DNA from: Somniosus microcephalus
Taxonomy: Eukaryota
Assembly (NCBI GenBank): GCA_052327205.1
Contig: CM126207.1
Span: 82,522,001-82,586,000 of the forward strand
Length of the DNA: 64,000 nt
Reading direction: 5' to 3'
The translations under genes were made by a program, and so were the position numbers. Below the pieces are notes generated by a model. That model was not told where the DNA came from and made no database searches. It worked only from the letters and a program-made list of their open reading frames with translations. The first letter of the stretch is position 1. Each line of letters opens with the position of its first letter. Below are positions 40,410 through 53,593 of this stretch, piece by piece.

Positions 40410-43200
40410 AGAATCAGAATGGTTACAGCATGGAAGAAAGCCATTCGGCCCGCCGAGCCCATGCCGACTTGCAGCTTGTCCCACTCCTCTGCCCTTTCCC
40501 CGTAGCCCTGCAAATTTTTTTCCTTCAGATACTTATCCAACTCCCTTTTGAAAGATAAGATTGAGTCTGCCTCCACCACCCTTTCAGGCAGTGCATTCCA
40601 GATCTTAACCACTCGCTGCGTAAAAATGTTTTTTCTTACGTCGCCTTTGGTTCTTTTGCCAATCGCCTTAAATCTGTGTCCTCTGGTTCTTGACCCTTTT
40701 GCCAATGGGAACAGTTTCTCGATCTACTCTGTCCAGACCCCTCATGATTTTGAACACCGCTATCAAATCTCCTCTCAATCTTCTCTGCTCCAAGGAGAAC
40801 AACCCCAGCTTCTCCAGTCTATCAACGTAACTGAAGTCCCTCATTCCTGGAATAATTCTCGTAAATCTTTTCTGCACTTTCTCCTGAGGCCTTCACATCC
40901 TTCTTAAAGGGTGGTGCCCAGAATTGGACACAGTACTCCAGTTGGGGCCGAACCAGTGTTTTATACAGGTGGTTCATCATTTTCACACTTTTGTACTCTA
41001 CCTCTATTTATGAAGTCCAGGATCCTGTAAGCCTTTTTAACTGCTTTCTCAACCTGCCCTGCCACCTTCAACGATTTGTGCACACATACCCCCAGGTGTC
41101 TCTATTTGTGCACCCACTTTAGGATTGTACCATTTAGTTTATATGTCCTCTCATTCTACCAAAATGTATCACTTTGCACTTTTCTGCATTAAATTTCATC
41201 TGCCACGTGTCTGCCCAATTCACATGCCTATGTCTTCCTGAAGTCTATCACTATCCTCCTCACTGTTCACGATACTTCCAAGTTTTGTGTCATCTGCAAA
41301 TTTTGAAATGGTGCCCTGTACACCCACGTCCAAGTCGTTAATATAAGAACATAACATAAGAAATAGGAGCAGAAGTAGGCCATTCAGTCCTTTAAGCCTG
41401 CTCCGCCATTCAATGAGATCATAGCTGATCTGCCTCAATTCCATTCACCGGCCTTATCCCCATATCCCTTGATGCCCTTACTAGTCAGAAATCTATCGAC
41501 TTCTGTTTTGAATATACCCAATGACTGAGCCTCCACCTCCCTCTGGGGTAGAGAATTCCAAAGATTCACCACCCTCTGTGTGAAGAAATTTCTTCTCATC
41601 TCAGTCCTGAATGTCCTACCCTTTATCCTGAGACTGTGGCCCCTGGTTCTAGATTCCCCAGCCAAGAGAAACATTCTCCCAGCATCCACCCTATCGAGCC
41701 CTGTAATAATTTTGTATGCTTCAATGAGATCCCCTCTCATTCTTCTGAATTCAAGAGAATACAGGCCTAGTTTACTCAATCTCTTCTCATATGGCAGTCC
41801 CGCTATCCCAGGAATCAATCTCGTGAACCTTTGTTGCACTCCCTCTATGGCAAGTATATCCTTCCTTCGGTAAGGAGACCAAAATTGTACACAGTACTCC
41901 CTGATTATTGTTTCTAAAAGCGTCCCCACTACTGAGGTTAAACTGACTGGCCTGTAGTTGCTGGGTTTACCTTTACACCCTTCTTTGAACAATGGTGTAA
42001 CATTTGCAATTCTCCAGTCCTCTGGCACCACCCTCGTATCTATTGAGGATTGGAATATTATGACCAGTACATCCATGATTTCCGTCCTCAGCATCCTAGG
42101 ATGCATCCTATCCGCTCACGGTGATTTATCTACTATAAGTACAGCCAGCCTTTCTAATACCTCTTTCTAAATGTTTATCCTATCAAATGTCTCCACTACC
42201 ACCTCCTTCACTAGGTCTATGGTAGCATCCTCTTCCTTGGTGAAGATGGATGCAAAGTACTCATTTAGTACCTCAGCCATACCCTCTGCCTCCATGCATA
42301 GGTCTCCTTTTTGGTCCCTAATTGGCCCCACCCCTCTTACTACCTTTTTACTATTTATATGCCTATAGAAGGCTTTTGGATTATCTTTTATGTTGGCTAC
42401 CATCCTATTCTCATACCCTTTCTTTGCCCCTCTTATTTTTTTTCACTTCTCTGACATTTCTATATATATCCTTATTCTCAGATGTATTTGCAATCTGACA
42501 TCTGTCATACGTGCTTTTTTTTGTGCTTCATCATATTCTTTACCTGTTTTATCATCCAGGGAGCCCTGCCTTTAGTTGCCCTGCCTTTCCCCCTAGTGGG
42601 AATGTACCTCAACTGTCCCTGAACTATTGCCTCTTTAAAGGCAGCCCATTGTTCCATTACAGTTTTGCCAGCCAATCTTTGATTCCAGTTTACCCGGGCC
42701 AGATCTGTTCTCATCCCACTGAAATTGGCCTTCCCCCAGTTAAACATTTTTACTCCAGATTGCTCCCTGTCCATTTCCATAGCTAATCTAAACCTTATGA
42801 TACTTTGATCACTGTTCCCTAAATGTTCACCTATGACACTTGCTCCACTTGACCCACCTCATTCCCCAGAACCAGATCCAGCAATGCCTCCTCATTGGGC
42901 CGGAAACATACTGATCAAGAAAGTTCTCCTGAACACGTTTCAGAAATTCTTCCCCTTCTCTGCCCTTAACACTATTATGATCCCAGTCTATATTAGGATA
43001 GTTGTGTGGTGTATGTGCCTTTAAGAGCCCCTGTGTACTGTAATGCCGGTAATGGCCACTCGGGCTATATAAGCCTGTATAGTGTCTTGTATCTGTTAGT
43101 TCACCTCCAGACTTTGTTCAGTAAACACCTGTAAACCAACTCCTGCATTCCGTGTCTTCATTAACACACGGATACAAGAAGTTGAAGTCCCCCATTATTT
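40410..43200 (-). mobile_element. CR1 LINE with a younger CR1 3' piece nested at ~41345-41900
   Basis: RT and C-terminal motifs in several frames; internal aagaacat tail at ~41345. Confidence 0.9.
43005..43179 (+). mobile_element. Solo Gypsy LTR in a CR1
   Basis: AGTTG TSD; starts TGTGGTG; TATATAA and AGTAAA; similar layout to the 254-bp LTR. Confidence 0.75.
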
Positions 43201-44136
43201 CTACTCTATAGTTCATAAGAAATAGGAGCAGGAGTCGGCCATACGGCCCCTCAAGCCTGTTCAATAAGATCATGGCTGATCTTCGACCACAATTCCACTT
43301 TCCCGCCCGATCTCCATGTGCCTTGATTCCCCCAGAGTCCAAAAATCTATCTATCTCAGCCTTGAATATATTCAAAGACTCAGCATCCACAGCCCTCTGG
43401 GGCAGAGAATTCCAAAGATTCACAACCCCCTGAGTGAAGAAATTCCTCCTCATCTCGGTCTTAAATGGCTTAACCCTTATCCTGAGACTATGCCCCCTAG
43501 TTCTAGACACTCCAGCCAGGGAAAACAACCTCTCAGCATCTACCCTGTCAATTCCCTTCGCAATCTTGTATGTTTCAATGAGATCACCTCTTATTCTTCT
43601 AAACTCCAGAGCGTATAGGCCCATTCTACACAATCTCTCATCATAGGACAGCCCTTTCATCCCAACAATCAATCCAGTGAACCTTTGTTGCACCGCCTCC
43701 AAGGCAAATATATCCTTCCTCAGATAAGAAGACCAAAACTGTGCACAGTACTCAGAATTGTCTCACCAAGGCCCTGTACAATTGTAGCAAGACTTCCTTA
43801 CTCTTGTACTCCAACCCCCTTGCAATAAAGGCCAACATGCCATTTGCCTTTCTTATTGCTTGCTGTACCTGCATGCTAGCTTTCTGTGTTTCTTGCACAG
43901 ACACCCAAATCTCTCTGAACGCCAACATTTAAAAATTTCTCACCATCTAAAAATTATTCTGTTTTTCTATTCTTCCTACCAAAGTGAATAACCTCCCATT
44001 TCCCTACATTATACTCCATCTGCCACCTTACTGCCCACTCACTTAGTTCATCTATATCCCTTTGCAGACTCTCTGTTCTCCTCACAGCTTACTGTCCCGC
44101 CTAGCTTTGTATCGTCAGCAAACTTGGATACATTAC

Positions 44137-44390
44137 TGTAAAGTCTGTGAGTTGTTTAGTTAATTAATACACAGACTACCAGAGTAACTTAAAACAGGAC
44201 TTTACTATTCGAAGGTCAGGGCGAATCTGCCAAATAAATCCTGACACAGCACTTATATACCGGTGTGGTCACCGTCGGTATTACAGTATACAGAAGCCAA
44301 CAAAGTAGTGCCACACCTAAAATAGTTCTCTTAAAGGTGAACGGTTACATACAATGGTTTTCTTAAAGGTAGACGGATACATACACTACA
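44137..44390 (-). repeat. 3' LTR (254 bp)
   Basis: TG...CA ends; TATATAA and AGTAAA on the minus strand; PPT aaaaagggagg adjacent at 44393-44403. Confidence 0.96.
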
Positions 44391-44493
44391 ATCCTCCCTT
44401 TTTAGCTTACAACATACTTAGTCCCCATTAAACATAACATATATTCAACTTCATGTAAAACAATTCACAGGTATAATCTATGCGGGAAACAGT

Positions 44494-44750
44494 TTACAGA
44501 TTCAGTCTCTGCGGGAACAGTTCACAGATTCAGTCTCTGGTCTTGACTCGGTCCGAACAACATCTCTGTGGTGTAGCTGGTTCACATTGCTAGCGTGACT
44601 CATCCAATAGTCTTTCCCTTGACTTAACAGCTTGAACTTCCGTCCTGCTGAACCAGCAGTGCTGACTTTTACAAACAGCTGGACTGCCTTGGTAATTTTT
44701 CCTACTTGCCAACTGATTTGGCTCCCTTCGTACGGCCCACGTACATGATC
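44494..44750 (-). pseudogene. Degenerate integrase C-terminal remnant
   Basis: VRGPYEGSQISWQVGKI and a duplicated QRLNL* resemble the end of Gypsy pol. Confidence 0.45.
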
Positions 44751-44780
44751 TGGTAGAAGTGATAATGATTTAGATGGTTA

Positions 44781-46238
44781 TCACCTTCTGCTTCGTCTTT
44801 TTCTTTTCTGCTTCTTGGAGACTCTCGGGGCTCCCTTATCAGCTGCCAGCTGTAGCGCCACCATCTCCCTATGTTCCTTAGACTTTAAGTGCTTCATCCT
44901 GATTTCTGCACTTTGGGAGTTTTCATCACAAGCTGGGCAGACCAAGTCCTCGTAATATTCTGTGTCACTCAACAGGTCATGGTAATATTCGGTGTCGTCC
45001 TGAACTAGTCTAGCGAGAGGGCCTGCTACTTCTTCCTTACCCAACTGGACGTTAGCCGACTGTTGTTCCCTCCCTAGACATCTTTCCTGAAGAGACTTCT
45101 TCATGCGTTCATATTCATCCCGCTCTTCCTGGGTTTCCTGCAAATCTTTCACTAATGACCTCATTTGTGATTTCAATACTTCCCCTTCCATCGGGGATTG
45201 ATTGATCGGGCTATTCAATCCTTCTACTGGAGCAGCTGTTTCAACATTCTGTTGTTCACATAGACGTGATTCAGCGTACTTTTGGGATCCCAGTAAAATC
45301 TGTGTTGCAACCTCAGCTATTTCCATAACTTTTGAGAGCTCCGAACTCCTTCCCTTTGAAGATTGAAGCTCGTGTTCAGATTGTTCCCATTGCAGAGTCT
45401 TGTCCCTCAGCATATGAAGGAGTTGGCTGACCGTTAACTCCTCCACGGGAACACTGTGGATCAGCGTCTTCTCCATTTCATCCACCTTTTCCTCCAATGC
45501 TTTCACCTTCTTTTCCTCTTGTACTTTGGCTTTCAGCGCTCTGAGAAGTTGCGCCTTGATGCTCTCTAGCTCATGTTCAGGGGCCATTCTTACAGTCTCT
45601 GTGTTTCTTACAGTTTCCTTTTCTTCCACTGAAAGGATTCCCAGTTGAATCTGTTCTTCAAGTTGTTGAACCTCGGTCATTGCCGCCTCATATTTGTCTT
45701 GGGTTTCCTTCAATATTTTTATGAGTTCTTGGACATCTTGTCTTTCATGTTCTGCCATGTCTTTCACCTCTAATTTCTCATCTATGGATGGAACTTCTAC
45801 CGATGAGTCTGTCTTGGCCTTGAGCTCATCAAGAATTTCCTGCAGCCTTTGGACTTCTTGCTCATGTTCAACCTTTAGTTGCTCATATGCTTCTACTGAA
45901 ACTAGCTTTTTGGAGGTTGCTGAGTTAATCCCCTCCAGGATTGTAGCCTGGGCCTGTTCATACTGTTCCTTCAACTTCTCAAACTCTGCTTGTAAGGAGT
46001 CGTAGAGAAGAACGGGAATAAAATCCTGGCTTCCTGAAGATTCCTCTTCATTTGCTCCTTCCTGCAAATATTCTAACTCCTGAACAGCATAAGGGAGATG
46101 TGATCGGTAATTGGTCACAATGGCTCTATGGTCGCTCTCTGCTTGAGCTAGCTGCTTCTGTTGTCTTTCCAGATTCTCCCATTCGGTGTCATAGAACTTT
46201 TTCATTGTTTTCATCTCTTGTTCGAGACGGTAACTCAC
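44781..46238 (-). CDS. 485-aa chimeric cargo ORF: ANKRD24/RAI14-like coiled coil + optineurin-like coiled coil + DNAJC21-like zinc finger and basic tail
   Basis: Uninterrupted ORF where pol should be; no RT/RH/INT motifs; recalled matches YRSHLxYAVQ, IPxxLYDSLxAEF, EELTVSQLL, MKKxLQExC, DLxCPACD...HREMVAL. Confidence 0.8.
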   Translation of the reverse strand: MSYRLEQEMKTMKKFYDTEWENLERQQKQLAQAESDHRAIVTNYRSHLPYAVQELEYLQEGANEEESSGSQDFIPVLLYDSLQAEFEKLKEQYEQAQATILEGINSATSKKLVSVEAYEQLKVEHEQEVQRLQEILDELKAKTDSSVEVPSIDEKLEVKDMAEHERQDVQELIKILKETQDKYEAAMTEVQQLEEQIQLGILSVEEKETVRNTETVRMAPEHELESIKAQLLRALKAKVQEEKKVKALEEKVDEMEKTLIHSVPVEELTVSQLLHMLRDKTLQWEQSEHELQSSKGRSSELSKVMEIAEVATQILLGSQKYAESRLCEQQNVETAAPVEGLNSPINQSPMEGEVLKSQMRSLVKDLQETQEERDEYERMKKSLQERCLGREQQSANVQLGKEEVAGPLARLVQDDTEYYHDLLSDTEYYEDLVCPACDENSQSAEIRMKHLKSKEHREMVALQLAADKGAPRVSKKQKRKRRSRR

Positions 46239-46253
46239 TTGTTCTACTTGCTG

Positions 46254-47159
46254 TCATAATTTGAAATAAAGTTGAGTCCGAGCTCGGTGTTCGTCAGTCA
46301 TGGATATGTCCGTAAACTGAACAGACTCAGAATTCTCTGTCAAACTATGTTGTCGTTGTTCGGTGGAGTTCTGTTCTGAAACTTTGTTCTTCTCTGGAGC
46401 ATAAGCCTTTATGCATGCCTTCGTTCTTCCAACCTTAGTCGGCAAGTCCATTTTAGCCTTGTCTTTCATATTTGGGTTGGTCTTATCGGCATCCGTTTCA
46501 GAATCTGAGCTGATTGTCTGCACCGAGTCCTCACTCGTTATGGCTTTTAGATAGTGCCATTCCATGTCTATTTTCTTGATCCACTCCCATCCCAGAAGTG
46601 GTGGTCCTCCCTCAGGTAGTACGTATAAGTTCATTCTTGGGTGTTCTTTACCCCCATCTCTCACCTTGACTCTTATCTTCCCCATGGGGTATACGTTATG
46701 CCCCGTGTATGTCTGCAATACGAACTTGGTATCTCTTAAGGGTATATGTGAGAATAGCCGGTGGTAATCCCTTCGATTTATGACTGATAGAGCTGATCCA
46801 GTGTCCAACTCCATTTTCACTTGGACTCCAGCTATTTTTAGCATGACCCAGATAGTTTGTAGGTCAGCTTCCTTACTCACATTGTGAATTCTCAGACTGC
46901 CCAGCTCCTGGCCGTTTGGGTCTGAGTCCGAATTCTGTTCGTCTGAACTCTTCTCAGCCACCTTGTGTACCTTGTTGTACTTTCCCTGTGATGGCTTCCT
47001 TTGGTTGTTGGTCTTCTTCCCTGACCGGCATACCTTAGCTATGTGACCCAGTTTGCCACATTTCCTACATTCCTGGTTCTTAAACCAGCATTGGTTTTGG
47101 TCGTGTGTTGTCTTCCCACAACGATAGCATTTTGTTGTACTCGAGGTAATTTGATCCAC
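46254..47159 (-). CDS. Gag zinc knuckles + aspartic protease + linker
   Basis: Two CCHC knuckles (CYRCGKTTHDQNQC, CRKCGKLGHIAKVC); LDTGSA catalytic motif; LLGWEW. Confidence 0.92.
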   Translation of the reverse strand: MDQITSSTTKCYRCGKTTHDQNQCWFKNQECRKCGKLGHIAKVCRSGKKTNNQRKPSQGKYNKVHKVAEKSSDEQNSDSDPNGQELGSLRIHNVSKEADLQTIWVMLKIAGVQVKMELDTGSALSVINRRDYHRLFSHIPLRDTKFVLQTYTGHNVYPMGKIRVKVRDGGKEHPRMNLYVLPEGGPPLLGWEWIKKIDMEWHYLKAITSEDSVQTISSDSETDADKTNPNMKDKAKMDLPTKVGRTKACIKAYAPEKNKVSEQNSTEQRQHSLTENSESVQFTDISMTDEHRARTQLYFKL

Positions 47160-47686
47160 ACTGAGTGCCGCTGCATTTCCGCAGTTCCCTTCGCTGCGGC
47201 TTCGTGCGATGCTGCAATAAGGACAGCCCTGTCAAGTGTAAGGTCGTTCTCTTCGAGTAGTCGCTTTTGCGTTCCTTCCTTTGACAACCCGCACACGAAC
47301 TTGTCTCGCAATGCCTCTGTCAGATTCCCTCCAAACTGGCAGTGTTTCGCTAGTCTATGCAGTTCGACCAAGTATTCTGCGTTGCTTTCGTCTTTCCTTT
47401 GCGTTCTCGCATAGAATTTGAATCGTTCCGCCAACATCAACGGTGTGGGGTTCAAGTGATCCTTCAGAACAGTCACAATATCATCGAAAGTCTGATCCGC
47501 CGGTTTAGCTGGTGCTAGTAGATGCTTCAAGAGCCCGTATGTCTTCGCGCCCATCGAGTTTAGCAAGGTTATAGCTTTGTCATCTTCTATTTTATTGGCC
47601 TCACAATAGATCTCAATGCGTTCCACATACGTGGCCCAGTCTTCTACCTCGGAATTAAAATCGTTGATGTTACCACGCTTAGGCAT
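47160..47686 (-). CDS. gag: Gag capsid region
   Basis: W..Y.ER....EAN, AERFKF..R.Q, LRDKFVCGL motifs of Mag-type Gypsy gag; frameshift near 47160. Confidence 0.9.
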
Positions 47687-48739
47687 CTTCCTCTCTTCCT
47701 GATAACACCACGAATTATTTCTTTAAATTTTCTTTTATTTATTAATTAATTTTTTCCAAGATGGCGGTTCCCGCGAAAATGGCGGTTTCCCGCGCTTATC
47801 TTCTCTCCCCGCCCACTTCAATGGCGGTTTCCCGCTTCTGTCTTCTTCCCCGCCTAATGGCGGCTTCCCGCGTTTCTTCCCTAGCGGGAGGGGTACACTT
47901 TCCCCACGGGCGACGGCCGCTGGCTTTCAGGTTCACAGCCTGTGCGTCGGCTTCAGGGCTTTCCCTTTTCTCGGCAGGGCAACCGGCACTGGGTACACCC
48001 CGTTGATGGCGAACAGTTTCAGCCGCTGGGCTGGCTCTCGCTCAGTTCCCCTTGCTCGGGCTCTGTCTCTCTCCCGCTCGCTCGGCTCTACCGGCGCTGG
48101 GTACACCCCGTTGACGGAGAACAGTTTCAGCCGCTGGACTGGCTCTCGCTCAGTTCCCCCTTGGTTGGCTCTGCCTCTCCCACTCACTCGGCTCCCAATC
48201 GCGCCTCCCAGCCCTCTCGCAGTCCGGTGCTTCCCTCCCCGGCTGCGGCTGAGTTTATCTCTTCCCGCGCCTACGCTCCCGGTCGCAGCGCTTCGTGGCT
48301 TCAGTCGCTGCCCGGCCTTTTTCGCCGGTCGCGGTCTAGCTGTCTCACAACGCCGTTGCGTCCCCCAGCCTGTCTGTACCGCGGCTTCCTTGCTCCACGC
48401 TGCCCCAGTCTCAGCGCCTCTGGACCCGACTTCTGTCCGGCTCCTTTCCCCCTCGACCGTGGTCGAGTGCACCGCCCTTATCCTCCGGTTATTCTTTTTA
48501 CTTTCCCTTACTCACAGTCACCGTGGCCGCCTTGCTTCTCGTGCTGATCGGCTCACTCCTCACCGTGGCAGAAGGGACAGTCAGTGCCTGTTGCTGATGG
48601 AAGTCTTTGTCTCTAACTTCTTCTTCCTTTCTAGTTCTGCAACCTCGAGTTTTCTCCCAGCAGAACGACGAGGGCGGTTGCCTCTTCTCGACGCTCGTTA
48701 ACTGCTTCGGAAGTATTGTTGCCGCAGGGTACGATCGGA

Positions 48740-48749
48740 CTCGTCGCCA
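48740..48749 (-). other. Primer binding site TGGCGACGAG
   Basis: Begins TGG one nt inside the 5' LTR; common Gypsy PBS. Confidence 0.85.
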
Positions 48750-48750
48750 C

Positions 48751-49004
48751 TGTAAAGTCTGTGAGTTGTTTAGTTAATTAATACACAGACTACCAGAGTA
48801 ACTTAAAACAGGACTTTACTATTCGAAGGTCAGGGCGAATCTGCCAAATAAATCCTGACACAGCACTTATATACCGGTGTGGTCACCGTCGGTATTACAG
48901 TATACAGAAGCCAACAAAGTAGTGCCACACCTAAAATTATTCTCTTAAAGGTGAACGGTTACATACAATGGTTTTCTTAAAGGTAGACGGATACATACAC
49001 TAGA
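48751..49004 (-). repeat. 5' LTR (254 bp)
   Basis: Differs from the 3' LTR at 3 positions by eye, including one in the terminal dinucleotide. Confidence 0.96.
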
Positions 49005-49798
49005 ATTACAGTCAGTCCCTTCATCTAGATCATTAATATAGATTGTAAATAGCTGATGCCCCAGCATTGATCCTTGCGGCACCCCACTAGTTATAGCCTG
49101 CCAACCTGAAAAAAGATGTTTATCCCTACTCTTTTTCTGTCTGTTAACCAATCCTCTATCCATGCTACTTTATTATGCCCAATCCCATGAACTCTTATCT
49201 TGTATAATAACCTTTTATGTGGCACCTTATAGAATGCCTTTTGGAAATTCAAATATACTATATCCACTGGTTCCCCTTTATCTACCCTGCTAGTTACATC
49301 CGCACAAAACTCTAATAAATTTGTCAAACACGATTTCCCTTTCATAAAACCATGCTGACTCTGCCTAATCATATGATTTTCTAAGTGTGCTGATACCACG
49401 TACTTAACAATAGATTCCAGCATTTTCCCGATGACTGATGTCAGGCTAACTGGCCTGTAGTTCTCTCTCCCTCCTTTCTTGAATAGCGGTGTTACATTTG
49501 CTACCTTCCAATCTGCTGGGACCATTCTACAATCTAGGGAATTTTGGAAGATCAAAACCAATGCATCCACGATCTCTGCAGCCATCTCTTTTAGAACTCG
49601 GATGTAGGCCGTCTGGCCCAGGGGTTTGTCGGCTTTTAGTCCCATTAGGTTTCTCTAGTACTTTTTCTCTACTTATATTCATTATGTTAAGTTCTTCACC
49701 CTCATTAGACCCTTAGTCCCCCACCATTTTTGGTATGCTTTTTGTGTCTTCTACTGTGAAGACACATGCAAAATATTTGTTTAACGTTTCTGCCATTT

Positions 49799-51949: not shown

Positions 51950-53593
51950 GCACCTCTCTGTAATTTCTCTGCAAATTTGCTCCTCCATATCTTTCTCACT
52001 ATTTGGTGGTCTTTAGAATACACCTAGTAGTGTAATGGCACCTCTTATTTTTTAACTCTAGCCATATAGATTCTGTCCTTGACCCCTCCAGGACATCCTT
52101 CCTCTCCAGCACCGAAACATTTTCCTTAACCAATACTGCCACACCACCTCCTATCTTTCCTGAACACCTAATTGTAGTGTATGTACCTTTAAGGGGAGAA
52201 CTACTTTTTACAGCTCCTGTATACTGTAGTACCGGCAGTGACCACACCTGTATATAAACCCTGAGTAGGGATCTGTACTGTTAGTTTTAGAGTAACCCTC
52301 ATCCAGTAAACACCTGTTGATTGTTCCTCTGCAGTCTCTGTCTATTTATTGAAGGACACCATACATCAAAATTCATGGATTTAACACTTATAACCAGGAA
52401 TATTTAATACCCAATCCTGCCCTTTTTTGAGCCCGATCTCAGTTATTGCCACAACATCATATTCCCATGTGGTTATTTGTGCCTTCAGCTCACTTACCTT
52501 GTTTACTACGCTTTGTGCGTTCACATACATACACTGTAAACTCATCTTAGACCATCCTGTATTCTCTCCTAATTTGGCCCCGCCTAATACCTTACTATTT
52601 CTTACTTTAGTGCACTCCCAATCCTTTGAGCACTTTATTTCCCCTTTCTAATGTTACATCCTGGTGCCCGTCCCCTTGCCAAATTAGTTTAAACCCTCCC
52701 CAACAGCACCAGCAAACCTCCCTGCGAGGATATTGGTTCCAGCCCTGTTGAGGTGCAACCCGTCCTGCCTGTACAGGTCCCACCTCCCCCAGAAGCAGTT
52801 CCAATGCCCCAGGAATCTGAAGCTCTCCCTCTTGCACCATCTCTCCAGCCACGCATTCATCTGCTCTATCCTTCTATTTCTATATACTCACTCGAGTGTG
52901 GCACCGGGAGTAATCCGGAGATTACTACTTTTGAGGTCCTGCTTTTTAATCTCTTTCCTAGCTCCCTAAAGTCTGCCTACAGGACCTCATCCCTCTTTTT
53001 ACCTATGTCGTTGGTACCAATATGGACCACGGCCTCCAGCTGTTCACCCTCCCCCCTTAGAATGTTCTGCAGCTGCTCAGAGACATCCTTAACCCTGACA
53101 CCAGGGAGGCAACATACCATCCTGGAATCACGTCTGTGGCCACAGAAATGCTTGTCTGCTCCCCAAACTAACGAATCCCCTACCACTAGTGTGCTCTCAC
53201 TCTTATTCCTCCCCCCTTGTACAGCTGAGCCACCTGTGGTGCCATGGACTTGGCTCTGGCTGTACTCCCCAGAGGAATCATTGCCCTCACCAGTACACAG
53301 AACTGAATATTGGTTGGAGAGCGAGATGCACTCAGGACTCCTGCACTATCTGCCTGGTCCTCCTCTTCTGTCCAGCGGTCACCCATTCCCTCTCTGCCTG
53401 CACACTCCTTAGCTGTGGGGTGACCACCTCCTGAAACATGCTATCCACGAAGCTCTCCGCCTCATGGATGCACCGCAGTGATGCCAGCTGCTGCTCAAGC
53501 TCCGAAACCCGGAGCTTGAGCTCCTCCAGCTGATGACACCTCCTGCACATGTGTTTGTCCAGGACATGGGAAGCATCCTGGATTTCCCACATG
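51950..53593 (-). mobile_element. CR1 ORF1 (SGNH esterase-like) and endonuclease fragment
   Basis: VGDSLV, VCCLPGVRV, VVHIGTND motifs. Confidence 0.88.
52173..52386 (+). mobile_element. Solo Gypsy LTR related to the 44137-49004 element
   Basis: TG...CA; CTAAT/CTTAT TSD; shares tgtagtgtatgta, cctttaag, ctgtatactgta, gtgaccacacc, tatataa with the reverse complement of the 254-bp LTR. Confidence 0.8.

Follow-up and report, generated by a model that had tools for sequence, protein, structure and literature searches.

Architecture of the element

We found that the window (the whole 64,000-nt stretch of Somniosus microcephalus DNA that was analyzed) contains a 4,868-nt Gypsy LTR element on the minus strand, inserted in a LINE reverse transcriptase (RT) fragment that was recognized from the flanking ORFs and is presumably of the CR1 type. 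Paired LTRs, a 5-nt target-site duplication (TSD; 44132-44136 and 49005-49009), a primer-binding-site (PBS)-like motif, and a polypurine tract are all present. After the protease, the element carries in one frame blocks of STK10, ANKRD24, and optineurin (OPTN), and a DNAJC21-like C2H2 finger. The features are as follows, with positions in the host genome prefixed by G000:

44137..49004, minus strand: whole non-autonomous Gypsy LTR element, from the LTR pair, TSD, and Pfam
48751..49004, minus strand: 5' LTR, 254 nt, 98.8% identical to the 3' LTR
48740..48750, minus strand: PBS-like motif GTGGCGACGAG, the same as in the RT-bearing element L036
46850..47686, minus strand: Gag with CCHC knuckles (Pfam zf-CCHC; Retrotrans_gag, E 0.003, below the cut-off)
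46581..46847, minus strand: aspartyl protease (Pfam Asp_protease_2, E 1e-6)
46150..46536, minus strand: STK10 mRNA remnant of three host exons with an internal deletion, 80-90% identical to G000:C8:167.19 Mb
46080..46156, minus strand: ANKRD24 3' exons, comprising a 7-nt AGCAGCT microhomology, the last 4 nt of an exon, and then a whole 66-nt exon
45437..46079, minus strand: large upstream exon of ANKRD24, 97% identical to G000:C13:62861844-62862491
45437..45443, minus strand: ANKRD24/OPTN microhomology; the host genes share GAAGAGT, and the window copy has a rare variant
45030..45443, minus strand: OPTN block, coding exons 5-8 in part, intron-less, from protein and host-exon alignments
44790..45025, minus strand: degenerate DNAJC21-like C2H2 finger; its better-kept copy L085 matches DNAJC21 proteins at 67-73%
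44599..44790, minus strand: STK10 lap, second half, from the upstream exons; not coding in the subfamily of the window, 78% identical to the host exon
44391..44598, minus strand: decayed integrase-tail region with short repeats and the polypurine tract (44391-44403)
44137..44390, minus strand: 3' LTR, from the LTR pair

No RT, RNase H, or integrase domain was detected in the element by Pfam, and the Gag of the window copy has a frameshift near 47160. By hand count, about 60 of the best 150 copies have frames of at least 980 aa, most often 984. LTR pairs were found in 19 of the 22 fetched loci and are 96.5-100% identical, which indicates that the family is young. As judged from its sequence, this is a non-autonomous Ty3/Gypsy element, which keeps gag and protease and lacks RT and integrase, yet has been amplified. 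Elements with RT, RNase H, and integrase in the same genome have the same PBS, a common 58-nt LTR motif, and 66-70% gag-protease identity. L036 and L091 show the same PBS and LTR motif as the element with a gag-protease identity of only 68-70%, and L036 (69%) has breaks. RT and integrase were likely borrowed from a helper element. The 5' leader (47778-48179) contains direct repeats of 90 nt and 32 nt, and short LTR-core matches elsewhere in the window (52200-52257 and 43018-43064) are possibly remnants of related LTRs. No tRNA genes were found in the 64,000-nt window.

Host-derived cargo in place of pol

The cargo comes from several parent genes, lies in sense orientation, and is transcribed. 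The name STK10 derives from a protein search, and Pfam also detected PKK; the window copy has a stop at 46254-46256 in this remnant, a point at which the frame continues in sister copies and in RNA reads. A normal splice junction lies at 46146/46145 in the ANKRD24 blocks, which were named from tetrapod matches; in the whale shark the homologue bears the label ankycorbin-like, and there are also two weaker paralogues. The finger block, named solely via the better-kept copy L085, ends with the basic tail KKQKRKRRSRR, followed by the ORF stop at 44781-44783. No homologue of the finger tail was found by a word search, an atlas search gave generic zinc fingers only, and the host DNAJC21 locus was not found in the host genome search; a PF21884 match at G000:C17:58.36 Mb was rejected as this locus because no tail match occurs in 50 kb there. 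Four cargo junctions display a microhomology of 7-11 nt, and both ends of ANKRD24 have 7 nt (AGCAGCT and GAAGAGT).

Some further host-gene pieces were encountered. An ANKRD24-bearing copy of the element (L035 3070-7961; G000:C13:62867070-62871961) is situated in an intron of ANKRD24 itself, between two of the exons that were captured and on the opposite strand. At L062 (G000:C3:354656987-354660409), an intron-less STK10 3' coding piece, which differs from the part taken up by the element, is fused to LINE sequence. RAD51 was rejected as a cargo of the family: 30 candidates gave 20 matches, and none of 8 loci resembled the element; two RAD51-family matches at G000:C12:192461743-192462383 (L101, L102), 375 nt apart and in opposite orientation, are unrelated to it. 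Among the best 120 of 139 matches to a 915-aa polyprotein query (8,000 candidates scored), no protein had both retroelement and host Pfam domains, a result that says little about other species.

The OPTN block is a spliced piece of shark optineurin mRNA

The OPTN block comprises 138 codons inside a 490-codon open frame (46253-44781, minus strand), in which the peptides quoted in a preliminary description of this DNA were located. The optineurin-like coiled coil proposed there for 45030..45443 was confirmed. Protein searches with the window ORF gave 48-61% identity to shark optineurins (best E 4.5e-26); these matches cover 28% of the frame, and ANKRD24-type proteins match another part. With 100 shuffles of the block, z was 40 against two shark OPTNs and 11.5 against a rodent OPTN, versus at most 2.2 against all seven control proteins (including an ANKRD24-type protein, two paralogues from the host genome, STK10, and DNAJC21), which rules out a similarity of the generic coiled-coil kind. 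The host OPTN gene lies at G000:C17:85,871,904-85,906,208, and its exons at 85.88-85.89 Mb match the block one by one, with DNA identities of 92.6, 93.3/91.0, and 84.9%. The block consists of coding exons 5-7 (85-93%) and runs into exon 8, collinear with the host order, and it traverses three exon junctions with all three introns absent. These alignments identify it as a genuine spliced, intron-less piece of shark optineurin mRNA. Frame-breaking single-base differences do occur in the assembly, even within host OPTN, but neither a fortuitous likeness between coiled coils nor a chimera made by the assembly is tenable in view of the z scores, the exon-by-exon DNA match, the 2,331 copies of the junction with ANKRD24, and the coverage of the stretch by independent reads and contigs that carry three organism labels.

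The block corresponds to residues 231-383 of the shark OPTN P0007 and is located between the NEMO domain (44-111) and CC2-LZ (503-589), outside all three Pfam domains of that protein, the third being the zinc finger (640-665). Pfam on shark OPTN placed no TBK1-binding, UBAN/CC2-LZ, or zinc-finger domain within the block; the UBAN motif is missing from the captured part, as had been stated. A 21-nt deletion is present in all 14 aligned copies, long or short, and is absent from the host gene and other sharks. Deletions of 20 nt and 1 nt in the block offset each other, such that the reading frame is shifted over about 14 codons and then restored. Querying the PDB by sequence, either with the ORF of the window or with a long-OPTN polyprotein, yielded no informative match. 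In the assembled host OPTN, coding exons 5-6 (L052, G000:C17:85884785-85885365) contain two inserted single bases that none of the 14 element copies has and that disrupt the frame; this is probably an assembly error, a damaged host gene being the alternative.

Back-splice-type junctions in STK10 and ANKRD24

The STK10 piece is circularly permuted. In the least-deleted copies, L074 and L077, five consecutive host exons follow one another as 2 (3' part)-3-4-5-1-2 (5' part), with identities of 97-100%, the 5-to-1 join connects the donor GAG|gt exactly to the acceptor ag|CAC, and the entry and exit overlap by ~14 nt, corresponding to one lap. This junction was found in 19 of 25 tested loci and has 941 exact genome matches, compared with 0 for the reversed control. 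ANKRD24 contributes a second such junction, present in 23 of 24 copies: at 46080/46079 the sequence jumps back to the large upstream exon and enters it precisely at the acceptor, the GT and AG borders being exact. Element transcripts include the same reversed-exon junctions. The permuted STK10 lap with its exact donor-to-upstream-acceptor join, together with the ANKRD24 junction, suggests circular RNA templates, and the STK10 and ANKRD24 cargo was likely copied from circular RNAs. RNase H would restrict the copying of a circle to one lap.

These non-collinear junctions might instead have arisen without circular RNAs, by RT jumps on linear mRNA or by DNA duplications of the host genes; we regard this as unlikely. 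Because AG|G is the consensus at exon ends, RT jumps can resemble back-splices, and alternatives to a back-splice origin of such junctions are noted in the accessible text of Dong et al. (PMC4897178). The exon upstream of the ANKRD24 large-exon acceptor was not found, and for this gene RT could therefore have switched templates within linear mRNA, at a microhomology of the CAG|G type. However, two genes are involved, each with a junction exact at donor and acceptor. A linear STK10 mRNA offers only 2 nt of microhomology at the 5-to-1 join versus 7-11 nt at the other junctions, and the STK10 capture begins and stops at one place. Furthermore, within the fetched stretches (70 kb and 60 kb), each of the host STK10 and ANKRD24 exons is present a single time and in the usual order, in opposition to a duplication. 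Copying from circles thus remains our preferred reading of both junctions. The long OPTN capture in L046 (host C17:85879048 and 85890333) starts within ~10 nt of an exon start and ends within ~5 nt of an exon end, as if it were confined to a six-exon circle.

The ANKRD24/OPTN junction and the order of capture

The ANKRD24/OPTN junction has 2,331 exact genome matches and 0 matches of its reversed control. The host ANKRD24 reads TTG GAA GAG TAC and the host OPTN TCA GAA GAG TTA, such that the two have the 7-nt string GAAGAGT in common. The preliminary description had taken GAG GAG, which the window does read at 45443-45438, as the sequence shared by both donors. A microhomology at the two glutamates exists, but the shared string is GAAGAGT; GAA replaces the GAG of the window in 22 of 24 copies of its subfamily and in all 100 of the junction matches listed, and in the RNA run X7 all 174 plus-mate reads differ from base 45441 of the window. 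L037, a relative devoid of ANKRD24, reads GAG too. On the evidence of these copies and reads, the GAG GAG at the window junction is a rare variant and not the common sequence of the donors.

A template switch of RT had also been proposed here, and the microhomology is what RT switching predicts; the part of the proposal that likely fails is that two host mRNAs were joined. The high copy number of the family, its exchangeable cargo, and its back-splice-type junctions had escaped the preliminary description. The 21-nt OPTN deletion is common to all 14 aligned copies, which points to a single capture of OPTN, and both ANKRD24-less and longer-OPTN subfamilies exist. For the same reasons the junction reads as a later insertion of ANKRD24 into an OPTN-bearing element: the most likely second donor is an ancestral element in which OPTN was present beforehand, ANKRD24 being captured later at the junction, as far as comparison of the copies can tell.

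At least 150 intron-less copies were recovered by a search with OPTN residues from upstream of the block. Sister copies have a longer OPTN piece directly inside STK10 (residues 131-431 in L046), with microhomologies of 9 nt at STK10/OPTN and 7 nt at OPTN/STK10 (11 nt with one mismatch). The ANKRD24-less form is represented by L037 and by a read joint of 45443 to 46150 (132 reads in X7 and 92 in X8), and L045 has lost most of OPTN. In 20 further loci, picked partly for long frames, the cargo is STK10 alone or a titin-like, BAZ1A-like, or unnamed insert. The titin-like cargo was recognized by Pfam I-set and by titin as the best PDB match, and one subfamily (L063-L076, L079) has up to three and a half such Ig domains inside the STK10 lap. 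A 153-aa insert in the STK10 piece of L080 and L081 (L081:3249-3707), in which Pfam found 0 families, is what we take to be BAZ1A-like. In L064, L067, L075, and L079 (L079:3084-3551), the protease is followed by an insert of 156 aa that has a weak match to a C2H2 finger.

Selection on the cargo

Pairwise dN/dS among natural copies was 0.12-0.13 for Gag and 0.15-0.30 for the protease, compared with 0.52-0.66 for OPTN, with intervals up to about 1 or above. We counted the fixed changes in the 23 copies nearest the window against permutations preserving the mutation spectrum. OPTN has 13 synonymous, 31 non-synonymous, and 0 stop changes, versus 12.7, 29.1, and 2.2 expected. In the STK10, ANKRD24, and OPTN blocks together, stops account for 0 of 108 fixed changes, versus 5.4 expected. 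The zinc finger was kept outside this count, its reference being another element copy scored site by site; it shows 7 synonymous, 15 non-synonymous, and 1 stop change (1.1 stops expected), and with it added, stops number 1 of 131 versus 6.5 expected. The sampled copies had been chosen by protein score or long frames, by which open frames are favored. The fixed-change test of the protease (240 sites) was weak (P = 0.08). ANKRD24 has 9 synonymous and 4 non-synonymous changes versus 3.9 and 8.2 expected (P = 0.003), of which 9 of 13 are common to the older copy L035, so that their lineage is ambiguous; the host-versus-element dN/dS of ANKRD24 was rejected as proof of selection for this reason, and some ANKRD24 cargo residues may matter. 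Gag and protease are thus seen to be under purifying selection, OPTN residues to drift neutrally, and stops to be avoided, in so far as substitution counts reveal it. The best reading of these counts is a passenger cargo combined with selection for an open frame. The frame need not extend to the element end because in the subfamily of the window it stops, following a deletion of 26 nt, ~390 nt short of the polypurine tract. Retroviral gag RNAs are described as being guarded from nonsense-mediated decay by read-through or stability elements in the accessible text of PMC7566565, and by analogy we infer that a similar protection may apply to this element.

A different reason for an open frame would be that the cargo serves as a spacer, keeping a basic C-terminal tail with a nuclear-localization or RNA-binding role on Gag-protease, in which case the tail and not RNA stability would be selected. 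Most complete frames indeed finish in an RRYP..R tail derived from integrase, or in a variant of this tail that is rich in arginine; the subfamily of the window gained another basic tail, KKQKRKRRSRR, by frameshift. Nevertheless, L037 has no basic tail at its end, the STK10-only forms retain an unmodified helper-like tail, and basic runs easily arise from purine-rich sequence, which leaves the spacer explanation doubtful. We note that two lineages reached arginine/lysine-rich C-termini via different routes (window 44784-44830; L027-L030 and L071-L073).

A decoy role for the captured OPTN, as suggested in the preliminary description, was not supported. As a selected decoy or adaptor, the coiled coil would be set free when the protease cleaves it off Gag, would bind to the OPTN of the host, and would weaken autophagy or the TBK1/NF-kB response to particles of the element. 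OPTN pieces are abundant in the family (15,792 and 4,098 first-look candidates, which are not copy numbers), the element is transcribed, and sister subfamilies retain the longer piece (131-431) with the sequence DSFVEI, which we take to be an LIR-like motif. However, the ratio of synonymous to non-synonymous changes in the subfamily of the window is the neutral one, about 14 codons are frame-shifted, and the NEMO/TBK1-binding, CC2-LZ, and zinc-finger domains are absent. In addition, there are successful subfamilies without OPTN, with STK10 only or a titin-like cargo, and L045 has shed most of it. A selected decoy is accordingly very improbable, and OPTN is better viewed as a passenger.

Expression and range

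Two RNA runs, X7 and X8, cover 30 of 30 bins of the element with reads that are not assignable to the window copy. The first mates are mainly on the plus strand in X7 and mixed in X8; first mates on the plus strand correspond to element-sense RNA here in most stranded libraries. All 30 bins are likewise covered, at 95% identity or higher, by contigs that carry two other organism labels.

Proposed history of the family

In the history that we propose, RT would first have switched from pol to a circular STK10 RNA, copied one lap, and returned near the integrase tail, so that pol was replaced; the structure is visible in the copies, and the circle is presumed. Later switches at microhomologies of 7-11 nt would have added pieces of OPTN, titin-like, DNAJC21-like, and other mRNAs into the lap; the junctions are observed, and their order is conjectural. 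In the lineage of the window, as the copies show, the OPTN piece was shortened, and an ANKRD24 RNA, likely also circular, was put before OPTN at AGCAGCT and GAAGAGT. Selection, as the substitution counts show, holds the Gag and protease residues and the open cargo frame and not the residues of OPTN, and the frame would most likely be kept open since translation far downstream shields the RNA from nonsense-mediated decay.

We assign a probability of about 0.72 to the main reading, namely that a piece of spliced OPTN mRNA is present in a high-copy Gypsy element that is likely helper-dependent and in which OPTN is likely an in-frame passenger. It is also on balance probable, as one joint claim, that a single reverse-transcribed circRNA lap replacing pol founded this Gypsy family, that the family acts as a germ-line exon-shuffling platform picking up both circular and linear host RNAs, and that this applies to thousands of young, transcribed copies with STK10, OPTN, ANKRD24, DNAJC21, titin-like, and further cargo in the Gag-protease frame. 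If so, the family shows how circRNAs become retrotransposed, namely inside LTR particles with one lap set by RNase H, and some reported shark "gene duplications", e.g., that of OPTN, are element cargo. It would provide a high-copy natural record for the mechanism of circRNA retrotransposition, which Dong et al. leave unexplained in the accessible text (PMC4897178). It is likewise a record of what selects host cargo, for a conserved Gag-protease, a neutral OPTN, and avoided stops are measurable together over thousands of copies. Gene-family counts in large shark genomes call for caution, as intron-less "paralogues" of OPTN, STK10, ANKRD24, and titin-like genes can be transposon cargo.

Comparison with known systems

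No description of this element family was found in the literature searched, which was largely without subscription papers and preprint supplements. In the Greenland shark genome preprint (10.1101/2024.09.09.611499), the accessible text lists OPTN among 81 duplicated genes or retrogenes. Like the cargo described here, these OPTN copies are single-exon, match several host exons, and have LINEs or LTRs nearby; the main text as accessible makes no mention of STK10 or Gypsy and does not describe the element structure or the cargo mosaic.

Transducing retroviruses with gag-onc fusions are replication-defective and helper-dependent, their pol being replaced by host cDNA in the gag frame. The shark element is alike in having host cDNA in place of pol, in frame with gag, and in likely needing a helper. 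In contrast, the captured domain is selected in the gag-onc retroviruses, whereas the OPTN residues of the shark element drift, and it is a Gypsy element without env.

LTR-mediated capture by template switching, multi-gene chimeras, and maize Bs1 have been described (Tan et al. 2016, PMC5131818; PMC13317346), and the comparison rests on the accessible parts of these papers. The chimeric retrocopies of Tan et al. and Bs1 are similar to the shark element in that partial spliced mRNAs lie between LTRs with microsimilarity at the switch points, several parent genes contribute to one locus, and secondary retroposition proceeds as a non-autonomous element. There are differences in scale and organization. 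Bs1 has 1-5 copies, and 3-10 recent retrocopies occur per animal species examined, compared with 2,331 copies of the shark junction; moreover, the shark cargo was swapped serially among subfamilies, is in frame with a conserved Gag-protease, and has a founding piece that is circularly permuted.

In the case of circRNA-derived pseudogenes, the accessible text of Dong et al. 2016 (PMC4897178) reports 33 mouse circRFWD2 copies with LTR-rich flanks and calls the mechanism unknown. The non-collinear join at back-splice sites, the genomic amplification, the LTR association, and the lack of poly(A) are common to those pseudogenes and the shark element. Compared with them, the shark element shows visible switch points into pol and the integrase tail, one lap plus ~14 nt, and two genes with such junctions, in frame, in 941 and over 2,000 copies. 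The process is therefore of the Bs1-like or circRNA-pseudogene kind that is already known, at a much larger scale here, and what the shark adds is a young, non-autonomous Gypsy family that numbers several thousand copies, carries exchangeable host cargo in frame, and was likely founded on a circRNA lap.
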